IMG/VR virus record: IMGVR_UViG_3300048579_000420
Location: 1-41,848 of that record
Origin: a virus
Lineage: Duplodnaviria; Caudoviricetes
Strand: one strand, 5' to 3'
Length of the DNA stretch: 41,848 bases
Program-made: the position numbers and the translations under genes
Notes under the pieces: generated by a model
Database searches by the model: none
What the model saw: the letters and a program-made list of their open reading frames with translations, nothing else
Told to the model about the DNA's origin: nothing
Part shown: piece after piece, positions 3,111 to 41,848 of the stretch
Layout of the letters: every line of letters begins with the position of its first letter
How positions within the stretch are numbered: position 1 is the first letter of the stretch

Positions 3111-3869
3111 ATGCAGTTCACCGACGAAGAATGGAAAGAGAAGGTCCAACTCCATAAGAAATGGCGACTGGGCGACCCGACCGGCGCCCGCTTGGTCCTT
3201 CCTTGGGGCGCTGACCTCCGGGACGCTGACCTCCAGGGCGCTGACCTCCGGGGCGCTGTCCTCCAGGGCGCTGTCCTCCAGGACGCTGTCCTCCAGGGCG
3301 CTGTCCTCCAGGACGCTGACCTCCAGGGCGCTGACCTCCAGGGCGCTGACCTCCGGGGCGCTGTCCTCCAGGGCGCTGACCTCCGGGACGCTGACCTCCA
3401 GGGCGCTGACCTCCGGGGCGCTGTCCTCCAGGGCGCTGTCCTCCAGGACGCTGACCTCCAGGGCGCTGTCCTCCGGGGCGCTGTCCTCCAGGACGCTGAC
3501 CTCCAGGGCGCTGTCCTCCAGGGCGCTGGATCACTCCCCCATCACCAGCTCTGCCCCGAGGAGGGCGCTTTCATCGCCTACAAAAAGGCCGGAAACCACG
3601 TCCTGACGCTCCTCATCCCCGAGGACGCCAAGCGCGTCTCCTCGCTCATCGGTCGCAAGTGCCGCGCCTCCAAGGTCCAGGTCATCAAGGCGGAGACGGT
3701 GGAGGGCCACGTCACCGATCAGCTGGAGTTCCGCAGCCGTCACGATTACACCTTCGTCTACCGCGTCGGCGAGACGGCCGAGTGCACGGATTTCAACGAC
3801 GACATCCGGATCGAGTGCGCCCCCGGCATTCATTTCTGGATGAGCAAGCGCGAAGCCCAGGAATGGTGA
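3111..3869 (+). CDS. Pentapeptide-repeat protein with DUF5758-like C-terminal domain
   Basis: 21 (G/D)A(D/V)L(Q/R) units; C-terminal LLIPEDAKR..RKCRAS..ECAPGIHF motif. Confidence 0.9.
   Translation: MQFTDEEWKEKVQLHKKWRLGDPTGARLVLPWGADLRDADLQGADLRGAVLQGAVLQDAVLQGAVLQDADLQGADLQGADLRGAVLQGADLRDADLQGADLRGAVLQGAVLQDADLQGAVLRGAVLQDADLQGAVLQGAGSLPHHQLCPEEGAFIAYKKAGNHVLTLLIPEDAKRVSSLIGRKCRASKVQVIKAETVEGHVTDQLEFRSRHDYTFVYRVGETAECTDFNDDIRIECAPGIHFWMSKREAQEW
3207..3527 (+). repeat. 15-bp tandem repeat x21
   Basis: G(G/A)CGCTG(A/T)CCTCC(A/G)G, 21 full copies plus a partial copy. Confidence 0.97.
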
Positions 3870-9205: not shown

Positions 9206-10195
9206 ATGAGGAAGCCATGGACCAAGATCCCAAACCGAATGAATGACCATGTCTACCTCTCGCTGTCGATGGAGGCGAGAGGGATCCTGACGGGCCTTGA
9301 GATCCTGATGGACAAAGGCCCGATCGAAGGCAACCTGACTCACCTCTCCATCTGGCTCGGCCTCGACCGGAAGGAGTGCCGTCTGAAGCCCCACCTCACA
9401 CGCTTGCTTGATGCCGGATACATCGTCGGCACCGTCGAGGACCGGGGCAAGCAAGGCCTCTGGTACACCCTGGATCTTCCCGAGAAGCACCCCGAAAGAG
9501 AGCCAGAAAAGCCCAAGAAAAGCTCCGGAAAAGCCCGAGAAAAGGGAGAGAAAGCCGAAAGAAAGCCGAAAGAAAAGCCCCAGAACGCCGAAAGAACGCC
9601 CCCAGAAAAGGGGGAAGATAAATCTAGTAATGATGCGGGTTTCGGCGATTCCTCTCTTAATAAGATATATCCTTCGGATATAGAGATCCTTCCTTCGGAA
9701 GGAGAGAATAGATCCTCCTTGCAGGAGGAGAAGGAGATGCGCGCGCGCGTCGCTCCTCCCGCTCTCCCCGAGTCCGCTTCCGACCTCGAAGAGCTGGAGG
9801 CATGGTGGGCGGCGAAGAAGGGACGCAACCCCCCGCTCCCATCGCAGGAGATCGCCGACATGCGGACGGCCATGGCCCTGCCCGGCATGACGGTCCCACA
9901 CATCAAGGCGTTCATCGAGCGGCGGATGGCAGCCCGAGCCGCCAAGGGACAAGACCCCCCGAGCACCTTCGGGTACTTCCTGTTCGGGCTCCAGGACGAG
10001 GCGACGCGAGCGAAGCTCCTGGCCGAGCCCGTTCCGACCACGCCCGCTCCCTCGGCGAGCACGGAGCCCCCGCCGCCGAAGAAGGCCCGGATCACCAGCC
10101 AGGCGCACTACCTGGCCATCCTGGACGACGGGCTAGATCTGTCCGACTACGAGAACCCCGACGAATTTAGACCCCGAGAGGAGGTGGCATCGTGA
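9206..10195 (+). CDS. Phage replication initiator
   Basis: N-terminal W.KIP..LS.EARG winged-helix-like region; repeat-encoded linker; position in replication module. Confidence 0.7.
   Translation: MRKPWTKIPNRMNDHVYLSLSMEARGILTGLEILMDKGPIEGNLTHLSIWLGLDRKECRLKPHLTRLLDAGYIVGTVEDRGKQGLWYTLDLPEKHPEREPEKPKKSSGKAREKGEKAERKPKEKPQNAERTPPEKGEDKSSNDAGFGDSSLNKIYPSDIEILPSEGENRSSLQEEKEMRARVAPPALPESASDLEELEAWWAAKKGRNPPLPSQEIADMRTAMALPGMTVPHIKAFIERRMAARAAKGQDPPSTFGYFLFGLQDEATRAKLLAEPVPTTPAPSASTEPPPPKKARITSQAHYLAILDDGLDLSDYENPDEFRPREEVAS
9491..9703. other. Putative replication origin inside the initiator gene
   Basis: Strand-biased GAAA(A)GCC/CCGAAAGA repeats, then an AT-rich patch and two CCTTCGG-centred palindromes (9666-9682, 9687-9703). 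Confidence 0.55.
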
Positions 10196-11788: not shown

Positions 11789-13221
11789 GGTACGGTAGCG
11801 TCTGCTCGGGCATCGAGGCCGCATCCGTCGCCTGGGAGTCACTCGGCTGGGAGGCTAGGTGGTTCTCGGAGATCGAGGCCTTCCCCAGTGCGGTCCTCGC
11901 CCACCACTACCCACACGTCCCCAACCTCGGGGACATGACCAAGATCCACGAAAGCGAGGTGTTTCGTGATTCAGCTATCGATCTTCTCGTCGGGGGCACT
12001 CCCTGCCAGAGCTTCAGCGTCGCCGGACTCCGAAAGGGACTGGAGGATCCTCGTGGCAACCTGGCGCTCGTCTTTCTTGCGCTTGTTGACCGAGCACGCC
12101 CCCGCTGGGTGGTCTGGGAGAACGTCCCCGGCGTCCTTTCGTCATGGTCCGGGCCTGACGCGCCGAGCGATCTGGAGCCTGGACGAGGATGGGAATCCGA
12201 GGAAACGAGTGATTTCGGATGCTTCCTCGCAGGCCTGGGGGAACTCGGGTATGGGTGGGCCTACCGAGTGCTTGACGCTCAATACTTCGGAGTGGCCCAG
12301 CGCCGCCGTCGTGTGTTCGTTGTCGGATACCTTGGAGACTGGCGACGTGCCGCAGCGGTACTTTTTGAGCGCGACAGCCTGTCGGGGAATCCTGCGCCGA
12401 GCCGAGAAGCGGGGGCGGGAGTTGCCGCTCTCACTGCGACTGGCGTTGGAACGAGTGGCGCAGACGACAACCAGGCGCAAGCAGGCCATTTAGTCGTCCC
12501 TCTTCAAGAAGTCACTTCACCGCGCGAAGGCAAGCAAAACGGCCTTGGCATCGGCCAGCCTGGCGATCCGATGTTCACGCTCTTGACCTACGGACAGCAT
12601 GCGGTTGCTCACACCCTGCGGGGCGAAGGCTTCGACGCCAGTGAGGACGGGACCGGGAGAGGGATTCCGCTGGTGGCGTCCACCCTCACGGCCAGGGAGC
12701 ACAAAGACCCTGATTCCGATTGCACCTCGACGCTGATCGCCTTCGACCTGGCGCAACTCACTAGCGCTGAGAATCGTAGCAATCCGCAGCCAGGCGACCC
12801 GGCCCCTACTCTCAACACGAAGGGGCGGCATCACGTCGCCTTCAACCCCCAGGCGGCCGGCAAGCAAACCTCGCTGGGCTTCGACCCTGGCAGCGAGCAA
12901 ACCGGAGCCCTCGTGTCACACCAGATACCCGCCGTCGTCGGAGCTGGCGTCCGGCGCCTCACCCCTCGGGAGTGCGAGCGGCTACAGGGATTCCCCGACG
13001 ACTACACCCTGATCCCCACCCACAAGCGGAACTGGAGCGCCGAAGAGGCCGAGATGCGGGCCTACTTCAAGCGGACGCTCCAAGACCTCAGCGACGAAGA
13101 GATCGAGCGCCTAGCCGCCGATGGCCCCCGCTACAAGGCCATCGGGAACTCGATGGCGATCCCCGTGATGCGGTGGATCGGCGAGCGCATTCAAGCAGTA
13201 GAGAAGGAGACAAGACCATGA
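11785..13221 (+). CDS. DNA (cytosine-5)-methyltransferase
   Basis: Motif I CSGIEA, catalytic GTPCQSFS, ENV, Q.R.R.F, RRLTPRECERLQGFPD, GNS. Confidence 0.95.
   Translation: MRYGSVCSGIEAASVAWESLGWEARWFSEIEAFPSAVLAHHYPHVPNLGDMTKIHESEVFRDSAIDLLVGGTPCQSFSVAGLRKGLEDPRGNLALVFLALVDRARPRWVVWENVPGVLSSWSGPDAPSDLEPGRGWESEETSDFGCFLAGLGELGYGWAYRVLDAQYFGVAQRRRRVFVVGYLGDWRRAAAVLFERDSLSGNPAPSREAGAGVAALTATGVGTSGADDNQAQAGHLVVPLQEVTSPREGKQNGLGIGQPGDPMFTLLTYGQHAVAHTLRGEGFDASEDGTGRGIPLVASTLTAREHKDPDSDCTSTLIAFDLAQLTSAENRSNPQPGDPAPTLNTKGRHHVAFNPQAAGKQTSLGFDPGSEQTGALVSHQIPAVVGAGVRRLTPRECERLQGFPDDYTLIPTHKRNWSAEEAEMRAYFKRTLQDLSDEEIERLAADGPRYKAIGNSMAIPVMRWIGERIQAVEKETRP
11966..12493 (+). CDS. Nested +1-frame protein, putative methyltransferase beta subunit (EcoHK31I-type)
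   Basis: GAGGTG RBS then GTG; 175 open codons; SLSDTLETGDVPQRYFLSATACRGILRRAEKRG. Confidence 0.7.
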   Translation: MIQLSIFSSGALPARASASPDSERDWRILVATWRSSFLRLLTEHAPAGWSGRTSPASFRHGPGLTRRAIWSLDEDGNPRKRVISDASSQAWGNSGMGGPTECLTLNTSEWPSAAVVCSLSDTLETGDVPQRYFLSATACRGILRRAEKRGRELPLSLRLALERVAQTTTRRKQAI

Positions 13222-16252: not shown

Positions 16253-16750
16253 ATGGCAAGCAATGCAGAAAAACGCTTCTGGACCTGGACCTTTGCCGAG
16301 CTGGAGGTTTACTTCGGGATCCGGCGGGGCGGGGTGAGCCACTACCTGAAGAGACGGGAGTTCTCTCCGGAGATCCTCGGACGCGTGCAGCCCAAGCAAC
16401 TTGTCGAAACGGCGACGCACCCGGGCTTTGTCCCGGTCAAGATGGGCGAGGACGGGAAGCGACCAATCACGCGAGAGGTCGAGCAGGCATGCGGAAGCAT
16501 CCCGTGGGCGGCGATGGACAAGGCGGTCAAGGCACTTGAGGCGGCAGATCGCGAGCATGCGGAAGAGGCTTACCGGACCTTCATGGCCGTCCAGCGCCGC
16601 TCCTACACGGACACGCTCGAAGGGATCGCCAGTCGTCTCGACATCGGGATCGCCACGCTCTACCGGCATCTTCGCTGGGCTTTGGATTTCGTGGACTGGT
16701 ATCTCGGCAAAGAGGCGGCAGGGTGGCCGGAAGGGACTGAGGTAAGCTGA
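16253..16750 (+). CDS. Putative late transcriptional regulator (sigma region 4-like HTH)
   Basis: TLEGIASRLDIGIATLYRHL HTH; last early gene before a repeat-bearing promoter. Confidence 0.65.
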   Translation: MASNAEKRFWTWTFAELEVYFGIRRGGVSHYLKRREFSPEILGRVQPKQLVETATHPGFVPVKMGEDGKRPITREVEQACGSIPWAAMDKAVKALEAADREHAEEAYRTFMAVQRRSYTDTLEGIASRLDIGIATLYRHLRWALDFVDWYLGKEAAGWPEGTEVS

Positions 16751-16817
16751 TAGATTAAGTGATAGGTTAAGTGATAGGAAGGATGATAGATTATGTGATA
16801 GGTCAAGGTGTTATATT
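16748..16817 (+). promoter_or_regulatory. Five 12-bp direct repeats plus extended -10 (putative late promoter)
   Basis: TGATAG at 16748, 16760, 16772, 16784, 16796; TG-T-TATATT at 16809-16817. Confidence 0.75.
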
Positions 16818-17686: not shown

Positions 17687-17962
17687 ATGAACAACGAAAT
17701 CACCCAGCCCTTCCGGGTCTCGGCCAAGTCCAGCCCCGCCTCCCTGGCAGGAGCCATCACCGGCGTGATTCGGGAGACCGGACGCTGCGAGGTGCAGGCC
17801 ATCGGAGCGGGGGCAGTGAATCAGGCAGTCAAGGCCATCGCAATCGCTCGGGGCTATGTGGCTCCGGCAGGGATGGACCTGGTCATCACTCCCGGCTTCC
17901 TGGACGTGGAGGTAGGGGGCGAGGAGCGGACGGCGATCCGGTTTGTCATCGAGCCTCGGTAG
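17687..17962 (+). CDS. spoVS: Stage V sporulation protein S family protein
   Basis: VSAKSSP.S.AGAI..QAIGAGAVNQAVKAIAIARG..P.G..P.F..ERTAI signature. Confidence 0.95.
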   Translation: MNNEITQPFRVSAKSSPASLAGAITGVIRETGRCEVQAIGAGAVNQAVKAIAIARGYVAPAGMDLVITPGFLDVEVGGEERTAIRFVIEPR

Positions 17963-32166: not shown

Positions 32167-32247
32167 TAGCGCTCACCCCCTTGCCTGCCTTTCCAATATG
32201 GGGCATGATGCTGCAATCGGATGCTCGTATGTCATAGGAGGTGCGCC

Positions 32248-32874
32248 ATGATCCGCCGCTTGCCGATAGCCCTGGTGTCCAGCGCCATCGCCCTCGGGGT
32301 GGTGAGTGGATGCGACATGGAGGTCTTCATGGGTGGGGTGAATATCTCTCCCAACTTGGGTGATAACCCAGCTACGACAGCCTCTCCCACCCCGACACCT
32401 CACCCTGACCATCTGAAGTATGTACAGGGAGTGGCGATGGAGCTGCGGAAAGATAACGGAACGCTATTAACCACCTACACAAGTGATTACTTTGACCTGT
32501 TCCAGTACAAAATCAGCGAATTGCCTGAATTTGGCCATTTCCGGATCTACTTCCAAGAAAAAAGCCTTGATGCTGGCGCAAACGGGTTTTTTATCTGGAA
32601 CAACAAGAAAGAATCCCAGCAAATCGAGTATATTAATCGAGGGTTTTTCGATTTCTTAGACTTTGATGAGGCTCCAGAGAGGGGGTGGGAAGTCGATTCC
32701 TACCTTGATCGAAAAATCCAAAAAGCTAAAATTGATGAGCTAATACTTTTCCGGATAACAGACACAGCTTCTAGCTCCATGTATTACGGAAAAATTAAAT
32801 TCAAGGAATTATATAAAGAAAAGGTCATTTTCGATTATATTTTGAACACAAGTCCCGGCGACCGGGCACTCTAA
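32248..32874 (+). CDS. Lipoprotein moron
   Basis: AGGAGG RBS; signal peptide with lipobox VSG-C; Pro/Thr linker; AT-rich body. Confidence 0.75.
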   Translation: MIRRLPIALVSSAIALGVVSGCDMEVFMGGVNISPNLGDNPATTASPTPTPHPDHLKYVQGVAMELRKDNGTLLTTYTSDYFDLFQYKISELPEFGHFRIYFQEKSLDAGANGFFIWNNKKESQQIEYINRGFFDFLDFDEAPERGWEVDSYLDRKIQKAKIDELILFRITDTASSSMYYGKIKFKELYKEKVIFDYILNTSPGDRAL

Positions 32875-35413: not shown

Positions 35414-38290
35414 ATGGCAAGGCAACCTTCCGTCAAAGTCAATGGCTACGAGGTGGGCGACCACCCTGCGCGCCGCATCGTCTGGGCGGAGACGGAGGGG
35501 CTCCTGGAGCCCACCAAGCCCTCCCCCTGGGCCTCCTTCGAGACCTTCGCGGGGCCTGGGGCGAACGACGGCGGGGACATGGACTATCCCGTCCGCCGTC
35601 TCTCGATCGTCGTCCGGATCACCAGGCAAAGCGGCTTCCTGAGCAAGCACGAGGCCTTGGCCACGCTCGCCAGCATCTTCTCCGGCAAGCCCGCGATCGT
35701 CCAGGTGGGGAGCCTCTACCTGGAGGCCGAGTTCAGCCCCCCGCAGGTGATCGCCGACGCCTGGAAGCTCGGCTCGGGCTACCTGACGGTCCGCTTCGAG
35801 GGCGAGGCCATCCCCGGCACCTACTGGGGCTCTTACGGCTACGAGAAGGGTCGGGCGCAGGGGATCGTGGTCCAGGACGATCGCCCCGACCACCCGTCGC
35901 TCATCGCCTCGGGCAACTCCTTCGTCATCCAGGGACTGGGGACCGCTCCCTCGGAGGCCGTGATCCAGGTCACGAATACCTCGCTGCCCGACACGACGGT
36001 CTACCTGCGGGGGGCTCAGGGGCAGATCGTACCGGTGAATCTCGACGCTACGGGCTACGGACGGATTGACGAGGGGTACGGCTTCCTGCTCTACCCCGGA
36101 GCCAATACCGTGCGGATCGTGGACGCTGCGGGGGCGCTGATCAGCACAGGCACCTTCGCGACCTGCTTCTACGGGACGCGCTGGAGGCACATCGGCAACA
36201 CAGGCAACCGCCTTGCGGACGGGCCGACCTTCCAGTTTGCCCGCACCGGCTCCGCCACCTACCTCTCCCTCGACGGCCAGCTCCGGACGGCTGGGGATGG
36301 GGAGGCGCGGATCGGCTTTCCGGGGGCGGTGGGGCGGCGGAACTACGTCTCCAACTCCAACAACTTCCAGACGGCTCAAAACAGCTTCTTCGGCGGCGCT
36401 GGGAGCGTGACGGCGGGCTACAGCACCTTCGAGGGTGATCCTACCAGCAAGGTCTCGCTTGCGGCCGGGGCCACGTTCCGTACCACGGTGAGCGGCTTAA
36501 CCACGGGTGTGGCCTATGTCGTGAGCTTCTGGGCTCGCGTCCTCACTACCGGCTCGGTTCGCCTCACCCTCGATCTCAAGGACGGCGCCACGCAAAACCT
36601 CGACCTGACGACGACCCTCACCCGTCACAGCCTGACCCTCACGGCTGGATCGTCTGCCGGCGTGGATATGTGGGCCTCGGCGGGGGCGCTGGACTTCGAG
36701 ATCCGCGGCCTGCAAGTCTCCGACACCCTCTCCGCCTACCAGCCGACGAAGGACGGCGCGATCGACTACTCCCACCCCCTGCTCGGGGGCGGGGTGGTGC
36801 TGGAGGGAGGGGCCACCAACCTCCTCAGCAGCAACCAGGCCACAGGCACCGACGCTCTCGGAGACACCACCGGATTCTCAAAAAATAATGGCATCGAGAC
36901 GCTATCTAGCGACACAGGGACGTATTATCAGGGCGCCCGCTCGCTGAAATGTACGGTCAGCGGGACGACAGCTTATCAAGGGATCTTCCTGGCGACCGCA
37001 CCAGTCACGGCGGGAAAGACTTACACCTTCCAGGCTGTGATAAAGGGGGCAGGCGCAGGGTTAGGCTATATCGTCTTGACTGACAATGGATCGACCCCCC
37101 AAACGGTCACAAAAACAGTCAGCGTCACCACCGACTGGCAGTTTGTTTCCGTGACCATCACAGCAAGCGCTGGATCTACCACCGTCAAACCCGCGTTTTA
37201 CTTCCCGAACAGCGCCCCGGTAAGCTTCTGGATTGACGCCTTGATGGTCGCGGAAGGCCCCTTTTCAACCTCTTGGGTAGACGGCGCCCGCGCTGCCGAC
37301 CTCCTCGGCATCGTCCCGCTTCACAACCTGCTCCGCTGGAGCGAGGATCTGACGCAAGCGAGCGCCTGGGTTACAGGCTCCTCTATGGCAATCACAAAAG
37401 CAGGGGGCGACAACACGCTAACCCTCGTAAGTGCAAACTCTGAGGTAATACAGGCCTCTGGGGCCACCAACGTAGCAGGCAAGACCTACACGGCAGCGGT
37501 TCGGGTGAAGCTCGGCACCTTGTCTGGCAACATCCGAATTCAGCTGATCGACCAATCCAACCTGATCGCTCAAACGCAGATTTTCACCTCAGCGCTATCT
37601 GCGAGCGAATATCGGACATTCTACGTAACGGGCACAATGGGCTCCTCGGCTACTCAGGCACGGGTAAAGCTCATCGGGCAATCCGGCTCAGGGACGGTCT
37701 TAGTGGAATCAGTGAGACTGCTCGAAGGCTCCCACCCCGGCATCTACGTCCCGACCACCGACGCCCCGATCCTCCCCCCGCCCAGCCCGGTACTGGATCC
37801 GGCGTGGAGCCAGAATGGGCGGGTTCGGTTCACCGGAATTTTTCCCGATGTCAACGTGAACGGTAGAAACTTTGGGCTTTTCGGTGGCTTCGGTGGCTTC
37901 GGTGCTACTCCAGATCTTTGTCTCTGGAAATACGACACATGGGGGCAGTATAGAAACATTTCTTTTTCGAGGCGCGATAGTTCCGGGGTGCTGCGTCACC
38001 TACAACCTGCGCCTACAACTGACTTGGCTGACGGCACACCTCACGACGTTGAGCTTGAGTGGACCAACGAGATCAGCGAGGCTACGGGCGTCCGTCAGAT
38101 GTGGATGCGCATCTACATCGACGGCGTGAAGGTAGCGGAGCAGGACGTAGCCGCTCTCTACGGCGCTACGGCCTGGGCTCCCCTTGATGCAAGCCGCCTG
38201 ATCAGCGACGGCTCCGTGCATGCGGTGCTCTCGCGGATCGCCCTCGACTACCCCACCCCCCGCGCCGGATGGCGTCAGGTCACGCAATAG
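35414..38290 (+). CDS. Distal tail (Dit-like) protein fused to repeated carbohydrate-binding-like modules (receptor-binding)
   Basis: LYPGANTVRI Dit-type motif; modules beginning RNYV/TNLL/HNLL with G..Y..S.W and FWID.LMV.EG patterns. Confidence 0.7.
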   Translation: MARQPSVKVNGYEVGDHPARRIVWAETEGLLEPTKPSPWASFETFAGPGANDGGDMDYPVRRLSIVVRITRQSGFLSKHEALATLASIFSGKPAIVQVGSLYLEAEFSPPQVIADAWKLGSGYLTVRFEGEAIPGTYWGSYGYEKGRAQGIVVQDDRPDHPSLIASGNSFVIQGLGTAPSEAVIQVTNTSLPDTTVYLRGAQGQIVPVNLDATGYGRIDEGYGFLLYPGANTVRIVDAAGALISTGTFATCFYGTRWRHIGNTGNRLADGPTFQFARTGSATYLSLDGQLRTAGDGEARIGFPGAVGRRNYVSNSNNFQTAQNSFFGGAGSVTAGYSTFEGDPTSKVSLAAGATFRTTVSGLTTGVAYVVSFWARVLTTGSVRLTLDLKDGATQNLDLTTTLTRHSLTLTAGSSAGVDMWASAGALDFEIRGLQVSDTLSAYQPTKDGAIDYSHPLLGGGVVLEGGATNLLSSNQATGTDALGDTTGFSKNNGIETLSSDTGTYYQGARSLKCTVSGTTAYQGIFLATAPVTAGKTYTFQAVIKGAGAGLGYIVLTDNGSTPQTVTKTVSVTTDWQFVSVTITASAGSTTVKPAFYFPNSAPVSFWIDALMVAEGPFSTSWVDGARAADLLGIVPLHNLLRWSEDLTQASAWVTGSSMAITKAGGDNTLTLVSANSEVIQASGATNVAGKTYTAAVRVKLGTLSGNIRIQLIDQSNLIAQTQIFTSALSASEYRTFYVTGTMGSSATQARVKLIGQSGSGTVLVESVRLLEGSHPGIYVPTTDAPILPPPSPVLDPAWSQNGRVRFTGIFPDVNVNGRNFGLFGGFGGFGATPDLCLWKYDTWGQYRNISFSRRDSSGVLRHLQPAPTTDLADGTPHDVELEWTNEISEATGVRQMWMRIYIDGVKVAEQDVAALYGATAWAPLDASRLISDGSVHAVLSRIALDYPTPRAGWRQVTQ

Positions 38291-38298
38291 GAGGCCCC

Positions 38299-38451
38299 AT
38301 GGACAAGCAACAGCTCCTCGACAAGCTCTGGCAGATCCTCGACGGCATCGACCGGACGGAGACGGACCGGGACGGCTGGTGGGAGACTTCCACCGGAGCG
38401 ACCTTCGGAGCCGGAGTCCTCAGGCAGATCGAGGATGCCTTCCGCGAATAA
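38299..38451 (+). CDS. Hypothetical protein (50 aa)
   Basis: AGGAGG RBS; GWWETSTGA.FG motif. Confidence 0.65.
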   Translation: MDKQQLLDKLWQILDGIDRTETDRDGWWETSTGATFGAGVLRQIEDAFRE

Positions 38452-38464
38452 CCCGACACCCACC

Positions 38465-38491
38465 GCCCCCGCCTCGCGCGGGGGCTTTCTT
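38465..38491 (+). terminator. Terminator-like hairpin
   Basis: GCCCCCGC-CTCGC-GCGGGGGC followed by TTTCTT. Confidence 0.55.
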
Positions 38492-38506
38492 CATGGAGGA
38501 CACCCC

Positions 38507-38779
38507 ATGGCCCAGCCCATCACCCCCTTGCACACCCACCGCGAGATCGAGGCCTTCGCCGCTGATCTTCGCGCCGAGACGATCACCCTCTCCTGCACGG
38601 AGGGGACTGCGGACGAAGGCGGCACCTACCAGCCCGCCCGGCCCTTCGAACGCGTCATAGACGGCGAGGCCTTCGCAGCGATTGCCTCGACCGTCATCAC
38701 CATCCAGACGCCGCACCAGACCGAGCAGATCACCGTGCGCGAGCTGCTCAAGCGCCTGCTCTACCCGCACGTCCTGTAG
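38507..38779 (+). CDS. Hypothetical protein
   Basis: GGAGG RBS; ATG 38507. Confidence 0.65.
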   Translation: MAQPITPLHTHREIEAFAADLRAETITLSCTEGTADEGGTYQPARPFERVIDGEAFAAIASTVITIQTPHQTEQITVRELLKRLLYPHVL

Positions 38780-39013
38780 GTGGCGCCCGTGATCGCCCGC
38801 GACAAGTTCGGCCATGCCGCAGCCGGCGCCGTGATCGCCTGCCTGGCCTGCCTGCTCACCCGATCCACGTCCTTCGCCGCCCTGGCCGTCCTCATGGCCG
38901 CCGTGGGCAAGGAGGCCTGGGACGCGATGGGGCACGGCACCCCGGACCCCTGGGACGTGCTGGCGACCATGGCAGGCGGGGCTCCCGTCATCCTGATCGC
39001 CCTCACTCTCTAG
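38780..39013 (+). CDS. Small membrane protein (VanZ/YfiM-like)
   Basis: DK..H...G, KE.WD..G..D..D..AT..G motif; hydrophobic. Confidence 0.65.
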   Translation: MAPVIARDKFGHAAAGAVIACLACLLTRSTSFAALAVLMAAVGKEAWDAMGHGTPDPWDVLATMAGGAPVILIALTL

Positions 39014-39030
39014 CCTGAAAGGACCGCTCC

Positions 39031-39546
39031 ATGAGCACACGCTCCATCCTCGCCACCATCCCGCACGTCATGGGCCAGCTCCTGGACGCGGCCCCCCTCA
39101 AGATCGCCGTCGCCCTGGTCGTCACCATCGGCGGCTGGCTTACCTCTCCCGGCCTCTACCAGGTCGCCGTATGGGCCCTCATCCTCGACTGGGTGACGGG
39201 CACCAGCAAGGCCATGCTCCTGCGCCAGGTCCACTCGGACGCGGGCGTGAGGGGCGCCATCAAGACCACGATCTACCTCGCGCTCCTGGGCTGCGGCTAT
39301 GCCATGACCCACGCTGGCCCGATCGCATCTCAGGCCGGGGAGTGGGTCGCGCTCCTGATCCTCTACACCGAGGCCGTGAGCAATCTGGAAAACACCGACT
39401 CGATCACCCGCCGCCTGGGGTACGACGTGCCGCTCCTGCGCCGCCTGATCGGGCTTCTCAGGATGCGCGCCGAGGAGATCGCCCCCGAGGAGCCTGCCGA
39501 CAAGCCTACCGACAAGCCCGAGAAGGAGGAAACCCATGCGCCTTAG
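39031..39546 (+). CDS. Phage holin (holin_4-like)
   Basis: LDWVTG..KA..S..G..G..K..EA.S.LEN; several TM helices. Confidence 0.85.
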   Translation: MSTRSILATIPHVMGQLLDAAPLKIAVALVVTIGGWLTSPGLYQVAVWALILDWVTGTSKAMLLRQVHSDAGVRGAIKTTIYLALLGCGYAMTHAGPIASQAGEWVALLILYTEAVSNLENTDSITRRLGYDVPLLRRLIGLLRMRAEEIAPEEPADKPTDKPEKEETHAP

Positions 39547-39907
39547 TCCCAATTTCAACCTCATCGAATTCGCGTGCCGCTGTGGCTGCGGCGGCGAGCA
39601 AGCCCCCGAGATCGTCGCCAACCTCATGCGCGTCGCGGCCATGCTAGAGAAGGTCCGGCAGGCCTGCGGCGGCAAGCCTCTGCACGTTACATCGGGCTAC
39701 CGCTGCCCCAAGCACAACGCCAACGTGGGCGGCGCCAAGGCGTCGCTCCACCTGACAGGGAAGGCGGCGGACGTGACCTGCGCCACCCTCTCCCCCGTCG
39801 AGGTCCAACGGATCGCCCGCGGCGTCCCCGAAGTCCACGGCCTGGGCCTGGGCAAGACCTTCACGCATCTCGACGTGCGGGGCCACCGCGTCGAGTTTCC
39901 GTACTGA
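39536..39907 (+). CDS. Endolysin, peptidase M15A family
   Basis: NF.L.EF.C.C, SGYRC..HN..VGGA..S.H..G.AAD, FTHLDVR. Confidence 0.92.
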   Translation: MRLSPNFNLIEFACRCGCGGEQAPEIVANLMRVAAMLEKVRQACGGKPLHVTSGYRCPKHNANVGGAKASLHLTGKAADVTCATLSPVEVQRIARGVPEVHGLGLGKTFTHLDVRGHRVEFPY

Positions 39908-39916
39908 GGAGGGGAC

Positions 39917-40606
39917 ATGGACAGCCTTGACCCCACCGAGGGACGACTCCCCGCCGCCATCGCCGCCGTCGCCCTGGTCGTCGGGGCGATCGTCGCGCTG
40001 CTCGTCGTCGGCTCCCTCATGGCTCGATGCTCGATGCCTGCGGAATCACCACCGAATGACGCAATGGAACAGCCGAATGGAACACAATCAACCGCCCAAG
40101 CCACCGCAACCGCCTCTCAGGCCGTCCGGGTCACGATCACCCGAAAACCGGCCTCGCAGGACGCCCCACAAGCGACGAGGCGGGGCGAGCCGGGGGGATT
40201 GGGCCTATCAGGCGGGGATGGCGGCTCCACGGCCCCCACGGACGGCGAGAGCATCACCATTGAGGTTTCTCAGGCTGTCGGAGTGGCTGCGGGGGCTTCG
40301 GCGAGCGTTTCGGCTCCAACTTTCGGCAATCTGCCGAAGGTTGACCATGCCCGCCTCGGCCTCGTCGCCATCACCGCCCCCGGCATCCTCGCCGCCGACT
40401 ACCAGCTCCTGCGCCTCGACGCATCGCCCCTCTCGCGGCCCGCCCTCGGCGTGGACCTGGAGCTAGGCCTGGACGTGGCTGGCAATGCCCAGGTTGGGGC
40501 GCTGGGCGTGACGGCGGGGGGCAAAGCGTTTTCAGGGGCTTGGGCGTGGTCCAGGTGGGACCTGGGAGAGCAGGGGGTGGCGATGGGGGTTGGGTTGAGG
40601 TTCTAG
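39917..40606 (+). CDS. Membrane protein at the spanin position
   Basis: N-terminal TM helix, low-complexity linker, amphipathic beta strands ending GVGLRF. Confidence 0.6.
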   Translation: MDSLDPTEGRLPAAIAAVALVVGAIVALLVVGSLMARCSMPAESPPNDAMEQPNGTQSTAQATATASQAVRVTITRKPASQDAPQATRRGEPGGLGLSGGDGGSTAPTDGESITIEVSQAVGVAAGASASVSAPTFGNLPKVDHARLGLVAITAPGILAADYQLLRLDASPLSRPALGVDLELGLDVAGNAQVGALGVTAGGKAFSGAWAWSRWDLGEQGVAMGVGLRF

Positions 40607-40615
40607 GAGGGGCGG

Positions 40616-40645
40616 TTGACGTCGGTCTCATGTTTTGATTACAAT
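40616..40645 (+). promoter_or_regulatory. Sigma70-type promoter for a small RNA
   Basis: TTGACG (40616-40621), 18 nt, TACAAT (40640-40645). Confidence 0.7.
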
Positions 40646-40647
40646 CA

Positions 40648-40677
40648 ATCATCCTCACAGCACGTGGGGGTGGACCG
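40648..40677 (+). CRISPR. Solitary type I-E-like CRISPR repeat unit (not an array)
   Basis: ATCATCCTCACAGCACGTGGGGGTGGACCG: stem CCTCAC/GTGGGG plus 8-nt 3' tag GTGGACCG. Confidence 0.7.
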
Positions 40678-40701
40678 CAAAAAACGAGGAGCTTCCTCGT
40701 C

Positions 40702-40731
40702 GCCCCGCCAGCTTCGGTTGGCGGGGCTTTT
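40702..40731 (+). terminator. Intrinsic terminator closing the repeat transcript
   Basis: GCCCCGCCAGC-TTCG-GTTGGCGGGGC followed by TTTT. Confidence 0.8.
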
Positions 40732-40764
40732 CGCGTTTCTCCGGGAATTTTTTTGGGAGAGGGG

Positions 40765-40793
40765 TTGACAGTATGATTTATTCGCGATAATAT
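40765..40793 (+). promoter_or_regulatory. Strong sigma70-type promoter
   Basis: TTGACA (40765-40770), 17 nt, TAATAT (40788-40793); overlapping imperfect inverted repeat. Confidence 0.75.
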
Positions 40794-40856
40794 CAATATA
40801 TCGGGTGAGCGGTTCATCCGAGCGCACCGGGGAAACCCGAGAAAAGGAGAAACACC

Positions 40857-41168
40857 ATGGCCAGCAAGATCGATCAGATGATGGCTTCCTATCGCGAGGT
40901 CTTCGAGGTCTACAAGACCTTCCAGGCAGAGCATGAGCGCCTGGAGTCCGAGTATTCGAAGGGGTACTACGAGGCGGAGGTCGGTCCCCACAAGAACATT
41001 TGGAATGACGCCGCAACGGCGGCGAATTCTGCCCGCCTTGATGCCGCCGACGCGGCCCGCGCCGCAGTTGCCGCCGTGCTGAACCGCCTTGGCGACGCTA
41101 TCAACGAGGCAGAGGGTCGCCATGATGTCGAGGGGGCCGAGATGGTGGTCTACCAGAACTGGACCTAA
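40857..41168 (+). CDS. Small acidic hypothetical protein (anti-defence candidate)
   Basis: AAAGGAG RBS; 103 aa with 18 D/E against 10 K/R. Confidence 0.75.
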   Translation: MASKIDQMMASYREVFEVYKTFQAEHERLESEYSKGYYEAEVGPHKNIWNDAATAANSARLDAADAARAAVAAVLNRLGDAINEAEGRHDVEGAEMVVYQNWT

Positions 41169-41269
41169 CTCCACCTCATGGGCCCGGAGCGCCTTGCTCC
41201 GGGCACCCCCTAAGCCCCTACGGTGGGGCTGAGCACACCCGGCATCCGCCGGAGATAGGAGCTACCCCC

Positions 41270-41848
41270 ATGCCAACCATCACCCGCGTCCTCTATGCCT
41301 CCAAGGAGGGTCACCAGGGCCTCATGAGGGTCCAGGTAGACCCTTCCCAGATCCAAACCGCCCTCGGCCGCTGGCTCGCGGAGACGGTCGAGACGACAGA
41401 CCGCACAGACGAGGCATCCATCGTGCGAATCCTCCTGCCTGCCACGGAGATCGGCATGAGCGTCCGCGAGATGGGCGAGCGCCTGATCCGCCGCACCGAG
41501 ATCCTGAGCGCGCGCGAACTGGAGGGACTACTCCAGGAGGTCGAGGTCTGGGCGACCAAGCTCCGCGCCGAGTCGAGGGTCTACGGCCGCAGCCTCTACG
41601 GGCGCCGGATCTACGAGTACCGCTGGCCCGTCTACCGGCCTGACCAGCAGACCCCGGAGAGCTACTGGGACGAGGCGGCGGGCGAGATCCGCGGGACAGG
41701 TGGGGCGATCCTCTATGCTGGCCTCAGTGAGCGCCGCCCGCCTACCAGCCTAGTGCGCACGATGGCCGGGGGGCGTGGCGCTCAACTGATCGAGTCGTGG
41801 AGCCGCCTCGGAGAGGCAGAGAGGAGTGATCATGGCCGAGGAGCATAA
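41270..41848 (+). CDS. Hypothetical protein
   Basis: AGGAG RBS; 192-aa ORF reaching the window end. Confidence 0.7.
   Translation: MPTITRVLYASKEGHQGLMRVQVDPSQIQTALGRWLAETVETTDRTDEASIVRILLPATEIGMSVREMGERLIRRTEILSARELEGLLQEVEVWATKLRAESRVYGRSLYGRRIYEYRWPVYRPDQQTPESYWDEAAGEIRGTGGAILYAGLSERRPPTSLVRTMAGGRGAQLIESWSRLGEAERSDHGRGA

Follow-up and report, generated by a model that had tools for sequence, protein, structure and literature searches.

RNA anti-CRISPRs that imitate CRISPR repeats are already in print, for type I-E both as Racrs and as Cracrs. According to the report that describes Cracrs (bioRxiv 10.1101/2024.10.29.618823), these RNAs vie with crRNAs for Cas proteins, which they direct to cas or creT promoters, and their spacer mutants are inactive; its 219 candidates come from Pseudomonadota, Bacillota and Actinomycetota. 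Racrs (RacrIF1, RacrIE1 and RacrIE2; Camara-Wilpert et al. 2023, PMC10651486) are described as solitary intergenic repeat mimics in prophages, adjoining small orphan genes, and RacrIF1 is reported to act via a handle-less RNA of 70–76 nt upstream of the cut, with a Cas7 filament. The host counterparts, I-E CreR (bioRxiv 10.1101/2023.03.10.532045) and mini-array I-E regulators (bioRxiv 10.1101/2023.03.03.530964), conserve the 8-nt handle in the first repeat, carry a degraded second repeat and a short spacer and, as these preprints describe them, lie inside cas loci beside their target. Viral mini-arrays resembling host regulators have been published as well (bioRxiv 10.1101/2023.03.03.530964).

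The window analyzed here is the whole of one viral record, 41,848 nt long, classed as a provirus and 62% complete. Its lysis cassette is followed, 9 bp past the stop codon of the last gene, by an element that is laid out like a Cracr (Table 1): it lies in a prophage, outside any cas locus, has its own promoter, and combines a pseudo-repeat with an intact 5′ handle, a short pseudo-spacer within the 20–24 nt range and a degenerate second repeat or terminator. Unlike published Cracrs, it has a changed loop in the first repeat and a self-folding guide, and its probable host, Ca. Sericytochromatia, is outside the phyla of the 219 candidates; the likeness rests on layout, the searches described below having returned no target. 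With Racrs it shares the solitary intergenic repeat mimic, the prophage setting and the adjoining small orphan genes, but its transcript would begin at the repeat stem, and the long upstream arm of RacrIF1 would therefore be absent (~19 against 70–76 nt). The handle, the degraded second repeat and the short spacer also recall the host CreR and mini-array regulators, from which the element differs by its location in a cas-less prophage.

An earlier, sequence-only reading of this DNA had proposed a candidate RNA anti-CRISPR at this site and put its novelty too high: type I-E already had published Racrs as well as Cracrs with 21–24-nt spacers. What the element adds is a clean candidate for a class of phage RNA anti-CRISPRs that is still young, and we found no report of one from its probable host class: the literature on CRISPR or phage topics, searched by title, returned no RNA anti-CRISPR in Sericytochromatia, a name that the text of nine Racr supplements (PMC10651486) does not mention either.

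Anatomy and repeat family of the element

Table 1. Features of the element and of the genes discussed in the text (window coordinates).
Feature	Position	Strand	Details
SpoVS, phage-borne	17687–17962		Nested among Sericytochromatia proteins
Lysis cassette	39031–40606	+	Holin, M15 endolysin, 229-aa membrane protein (last gene, 39917–40606)
σ70-type promoter	40616–40645	+	−35 TTGACG 40616–40621; 18-nt spacing; −10 TACAAT 40640–40645
Pseudo-repeat 1, type I-E	40648–40677	+	T at 40655, extra A at 40659; stem-loop 40651–40671
Intact 8-nt 5′ handle	40670–40677	+	GTGGACCG; same as last 8 nt of nearest array repeats
20-nt pseudo-spacer	40678–40697	+	12 nt below array spacers; 6 unpaired nt, then 7-bp hairpin 40684–40700
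Predicted terminator	40698–40731	+	5-nt leader; 11-bp hairpin 40702–40727, CCCC opening and GGGG closing; T4
Accessory operon	40765–41848	+	Separate promoter at 40765; 103-aa and 192-aa ORFs
103-aa acidic orphan	40857–41168		pI 4.74; first gene behind the 40765 promoter; adjoins the RNA unit
192-aa protein of unnamed family	41270–41848		83 matches

All parts named in the sequence-only reading, i.e., the promoter TTGACG-18-TACAAT, a solitary type I-E-like repeat, a spacer and a hairpin, are present where it had placed them. The promoter scores 10/12 and is one of only two sites of at least 10/12 on both strands of the 41.8-kb window, the other one being located at 40765. From the usual σ70 spacing, we take transcription to start at 40651–40652. 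A start at this place, the base of the repeat stem, is predicted to lie ~19 nt upstream of the Cas6e cut, itself predicted between 40669 and 40670. The RNA expected from the unit is 81 nt long and folds into three hairpins; for the 92-nt stretch, the fold has a z-score of −5.76, and none of 200 shuffles was equally stable. The immunity-region operator occurs in four copies at 1260–1358 and in none near the element promoter; since the promoter has no repressor operator, transcription of the element in the lysogen is likely. Rfam models run over positions 38000–41848 gave nothing above the gathering score.

Relatives of the repeat were fetched from bacterial genomes (51 of the 64 parts of the collection) with a pattern made from the element's own 3′ part, a choice whose bias favours the element. 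The 131 loci retrieved are mostly arrays with a 61-bp period and come from Nocardiopsis, Thermus, Chloroflexota, Armatimonadota, Bacillota and others. In one of them (L048), a complete cas8e-cas11-cas7-cas5e-cas6e-cas1e operon precedes the array of this repeat family and is oriented the same way. Pseudo-repeat 1 is two edits away from the array repeat of Thermalbibacter longus (L096), three from that of L078 and four from that of L050. The nearest other site in the window is 7–9 edits off, and in 30 simulated windows, the closest approach to any of 27 array repeats was five edits. The 5′ stem arm is not an automatic companion of the 3′ end, since 71 of the 82 viral loci with the same 15-nt 3′ end are without it; the other 11 are repeat copies that have the arm, and it is present in the window. 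Edit distances, simulated windows and the 5′ stem arm together rule out a chance origin. The type I-E resemblance claimed at first sight thus stands, and membership of pseudo-repeat 1 in this type I-E CRISPR repeat family is supported by sequence comparison.

The two edits that separate pseudo-repeat 1 from the T. longus repeat are a C-to-T change at 40655, which keeps a G-U pair, and the added A at 40659, which makes a loop of 5 nt where type I-E repeats have 4 nt. The sequence-only reading had overlooked this inserted A, which is unseen in natural repeats: a 5-nt loop occurs in none of 1585 genomic repeats, a set biased towards 4-nt loops by the fetch pattern, and in none of the matches listed for 46 viral loci, for which the pattern allowed 3–7 nt. 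A literature search on the loop-length tolerance of Cas6e found nothing relevant. For a Salmonella Cracr repeat, a 1-nt loop deletion is reported to have impaired cutting (bioRxiv 10.1101/2024.10.29.618823).

The pseudo-repeat is solitary: it is intergenic, lies on a mobile element, and has no second repeat of at least 70% identity within 100 bp and no cas genes in a record that is 62% complete. In agreement with the earlier claim, neither another repeat nor cas6e nor homology to the type I-E operon of L048 was found in the window. When the element was compared by BLAST with 37 repeats from other organisms, the match covered 18 nt at 36.2 bits. SRUFinder thresholds are given as 90% identity and coverage and 41.1 bits (PMC10651486), and because the match falls below the coverage and bit-score limits, such a screen would probably miss the element. 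The locus thus shows a form that published BLAST thresholds would probably pass over.

A handle of 8 nt has been demonstrated for CracrIE1 (bioRxiv 10.1101/2024.10.29.618823). Behind the handle, the sequence-only reading had measured a spacer of 21 nt; the spacer is indeed short, and in register with the array repeats, it is 20 nt long. The same reading saw in the next segment both a terminator and the 5′ end of a repeat. As to the former, the 11-bp hairpin and a T4 run are there; the terminator scan made no call, as it requires five T and finds four. As to the latter, the second hairpin and the repeat agree at no more than about half of the positions. The element does not have the make-up of a viral mini-CRISPR array, with two near-identical repeats and a full-length 32-nt spacer; here the half-identical hairpin begins 25 nt off the handle instead of 37. 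We predict that the hairpin is a terminator substituting for the 3′ handle, and it probably doubles as the end of the late operon; a 3′ end made by a terminator is reported to work on an I-E crRNA (PMC4499155). The working product is more likely the 62 nt that would comprise handle, 20-nt pseudo-spacer and hairpin.

Distance from the handle to the downstream hairpin

In the window, the CCCC stem of the second hairpin starts 25 nt past the handle. In arrays, this distance is 37 nt, and the difference is exactly −12. Among 1525 genomic repeat units, 1295 show 37 nt and none shows 25 nt. The 104 viral units (including the window) comprise 71 with a distance of 37–40 nt, one with 52 nt, 27 without such a stem and five below 35 nt. 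These five are a 16-nt case within an array, a terminator at 32 nt, and three units at 25 nt, i.e., the window, L168 and L254.

L168 and L254 are unrelated phage records of 92 kb and 67 kb without cas6e. Each carries a repeat, a 20-nt spacer and a degenerate second repeat (at about 1440–1530 on the minus strand of L168 and about 1494–1565 on the plus strand of L254), and L168 additionally has a terminator-like hairpin. Judged by this layout, both are candidate I-E Cracrs. The L168 guide had five matches in five actinobacterial genomes, none near cas genes, and no informative BLAST match. In the published Salmonella pair of I-E Cracrs, the spacers are given as 24 and 21 nt, not 20 (bioRxiv 10.1101/2024.10.29.618823). 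With three cases, spotted after the fact, the recurrence of 25 nt is suggestive of a −12 class and not proof of one.

Spacers 12 nt below wild type are known from engineered Cascades (PMC6859484, PMC5159557). The −12 complex has two fewer Cas7 and one fewer Cas11 subunits, is stable and homogeneous and forms R-loops; in Streptococcus thermophilus, it is reported neither to lock nor to cleave (PMC6859484), and in E. coli, cleavage with a spacer shortened by 12 nt is described as much weaker (PMC5159557). Those complexes are laboratory constructs with matching targets, whereas assembly with the window RNA is only predicted. Through the recurring 25-nt distance, guides of natural phages connect with the periodicity of 6 and 12 nt known for Cascade, and the prediction from it is a complex minus two Cas7 and one Cas11 that would bind without cutting.

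Further lone or two-repeat I-E units were noticed near position 1500 of other viral contigs. In L229, a promoter-like site abuts the repeat and a hairpin lies in the spacer; in L231, a promoter scoring 11/12 is accompanied by a T-run; in L248, a terminator comes straight after the handle; L251 and L260 hold additional units of this kind.

Possible modes of action

That the element has the anatomy of an RNA gene and belongs to type I-E is supported, and an anti-CRISPR role is plausible from its sequence. Our preferred reading, held tentatively and with somewhat less than even confidence, is that the element encodes a Cracr-like RNA, a Cas6e-cut crRNA mimic that would load a short, non-cutting Cascade and repress a cas or CreT-type promoter. 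From the observed anatomy, repeat family, solitariness and recurring −12 register, we infer transcription, cutting, assembly and targeting of the following kind. The promoter would give the 81-nt RNA from the lone, slightly altered type I-E repeat, and host Cas6e would cut it to the 62-nt crRNA mimic. The mimic would load Cascade in a shortened, non-cutting form minus two Cas7 and one Cas11, which would be drained from real crRNAs, and the mimic would probably guide the loaded complex to a cas or CreT-type promoter of the host, which it would repress. The sequence-only reading had left a choice between jamming and redirecting Cascade. Redirecting or loading, as Cracrs do, fits the element better; the RacrIF1 mechanism fits less well because it uses 70–76 nt upstream of the cut and the element promoter gives ~19. 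Features that count against a guide are the enlarged loop, the self-folding of the pseudo-spacer and the target searches that came back empty (see below). If the preferred reading is true, such units would be compact templates for gene repression by native type I-E systems.

A target of the pseudo-spacer, for which a search had been suggested at the outset, was found neither in the window and the 131 loci, where no CreR homologue was found either, nor in a metagenome scan nor in 853 genome searches; all of these sets lie outside the likely host class Sericytochromatia. The handle-plus-seed search for a CreR homologue in the metagenome scan gave two chance matches, apparently intragenic and without a hairpin, and in the 853 genome searches (401, 301 and 151 genomes around loci of Chloroflexota, Armatimonadota and Bacillota), it gave 11 matches, none of them after a repeat stem. 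The seed had no match in the five genomes with the nearest repeats. In these sets, no CreR/CreA spacer and no PAM-flanked cas or creT promoter agreed with the guide over nine or more PAM-proximal bases.

These empty searches are consistent with a reading that we regard as possible though unlikely, in which the RNA is a decoy, a Racr in the broad sense: it would be cut and would build a −12 Cascade, and with a targetless, self-folding pseudo-spacer, it would inhibit only by using up Cas subunits. Two I-E Racrs are reported to inhibit the I-E system of Pseudomonas aeruginosa (PMC10651486). The fold of the guide also speaks for a decoy, since few natural spacers (12 of 1267) have a perfect 7-bp hairpin such as the one over guide positions 7–23; spacers that fold as stably overall number 110 of the 1267. 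However, the guide is unpaired at its seed end, and the target search covered sets outside Sericytochromatia. Moreover, mutation of the spacer abolished protection by CracrVA1 and CracrIE1 in the published experiments (bioRxiv 10.1101/2024.10.29.618823), because titration alone relieves Cas autorepression.

A more speculative reading, which appears distinctly unlikely to us, is that unrelated phages converged on a −12 I-E crRNA mimic. The 20-nt guide and the in-register 3′ hairpin would then be sized for a stable Cascade unable to lock or to call Cas3. Here, the self-folding guide and the enlarged first loop would make a sponge for the whole Cascade with tuned processing, and Sericytochromatia, a cyanobacterial class without photosynthesis, would have its first RNA anti-CRISPR.

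It is improbable that the element is a relic, left from a crRNA-like unit or from the captured end of an array, with a twice-mutated repeat that would go uncut and hairpins that would serve as plus- and minus-strand terminators of the late operon. The inserted loop A would suit such an origin. Read on the minus strand, the pseudo-spacer is a terminator-like hairpin with a T-run, and a terminator would in any case be required at this place by the lysis operon. The element was also found in no other viral contig, annotated phage or plasmid: two exact patterns had no match in viral contigs, and BLAST against annotated phages and plasmids gave short chance matches only. The 229-aa protein alone retrieved no relatives as a query; the holin and a two-sequence alignment led to one related provirus (L134/G006; holin 82%), whose record breaks off at the stop codon that precedes the element and contains no repeat pattern. 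The capsid alignment retrieved 26 loci, all at 43% identity or less. Against a relic stand the substitution that preserves pairing, the intact handle, the intact promoter positioned at the stem base and the 25-nt register common to L168 and L254.

Two related possibilities, taken together as highly improbable, start from the repeat itself. In one, the 5-nt loop would turn the RNA into a Cas6e trap that is bound and slowly cut; in the other, lytic read-through late mRNA would be cut to a RacrIF1-like product, a handle-less arm with a Cas7 filament. The changed loop speaks for them, as does the terminator scan, which called nothing terminator-like from the lysis genes up to the repeat; RacrIF1 itself is reported to work through the upstream product (PMC10651486). 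With the dedicated promoter, however, the cut has only ~19 nt upstream of it, and an intact handle with an in-register 3′ hairpin would be superfluous. That the guide is aimed at a rival phage or plasmid, or at a promoter of the phage itself, with host Cascade as the repressor, seems far-fetched: viral mini-arrays are known in interviral conflict (PMC6858448), but the prophage part (record 62% complete) holds no seed match of at least eight positions, annotated phages and plasmids gave no BLAST match, and a 20-nt guide, judging from the engineered complexes (PMC6859484), would not trigger cutting.

Gene neighbourhood and probable host

Two genes lie downstream of the RNA unit under their own promoter. 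No homologue of the 103-aa orphan was found; its predicted structure is a two-helix hairpin, and it is a possible protein anti-CRISPR (Acr). The model of the 192-aa protein has a pLDDT of 96. Foldseek gave no match for it in PDB or BFVD at E 0.001 or better, and all that a wide structure search gave was a match to a helical hairpin (best Z 6.3, 49 residues); these null results do not show a new fold. PHROG, Pfam and PADLOC had no match for either ORF, including in a 53-member scan.

The window encodes ImmA, CI, Cro, replication, methyltransferase, head, tail and lysis proteins, as expected of a temperate tailed phage, and the 229-aa membrane protein of the lysis cassette is a putative spanin. 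A 429,747-bp contig also carries the capsid protein and three other window proteins that were looked up.

Judged from the tree of one gene, that of SpoVS, the host is probably Ca. Sericytochromatia. At E 1e-30 or better, 86 relatives of the phage SpoVS were found, with identity of up to 78%. Out of 10 clusters looked up, seven are labelled, where a lineage is given, as Ca. Sericytochromatia or cyanobacterial MAGs, two are nameless, and one is Mesoaciditoga. In a tree of 32 rows, chosen from named and top matches, the phage protein falls inside a 17-row clade (support 99/96) that contains eight Sericytochromatia, four cyanobacterial MAG and four nameless rows. Searches for the capsid or holin in candidate host genomes gave 0/5 and 0/101.

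When the host was sought by CRISPR spacers, only one of 1323 matched well. This spacer (L048:6632–6663, also in L102), from an I-E array of a MAG labelled Propionibacterium sp., matches the minus strand of the window at 12283–12314, in the methyltransferase gene, at 29 of 32 bases; AAC precedes, the mismatches are at spacer positions 6, 12 and 30, and the next-best spacer has seven mismatches. The match probably reflects a mobile methyltransferase common to another phage, and because the matched gene is mobile, the source of the spacer was not taken as the host; the Propionibacterium sp. MAG was rejected as a candidate.

Several other features of the window were noted. A lipoprotein-like low-GC gene without a family match lies between tail genes (32221–32874), and 15-nt tandem repeats, of a pentapeptide-type protein, occupy positions 3146–3588. 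Upstream of the late region, positions 16740–16810 contain four to five 12-nt repeats with TGATAG, possible binding sites of a late regulator. A-rich 11-nt repeats within the replication initiator gene (9483–9615) are likely origin iterons. The region between cI and cro (1260–1371) carries four GACA-N6-TGTC palindromes, likely repressor operators, and an ImmA-type protease gene comes after cI.
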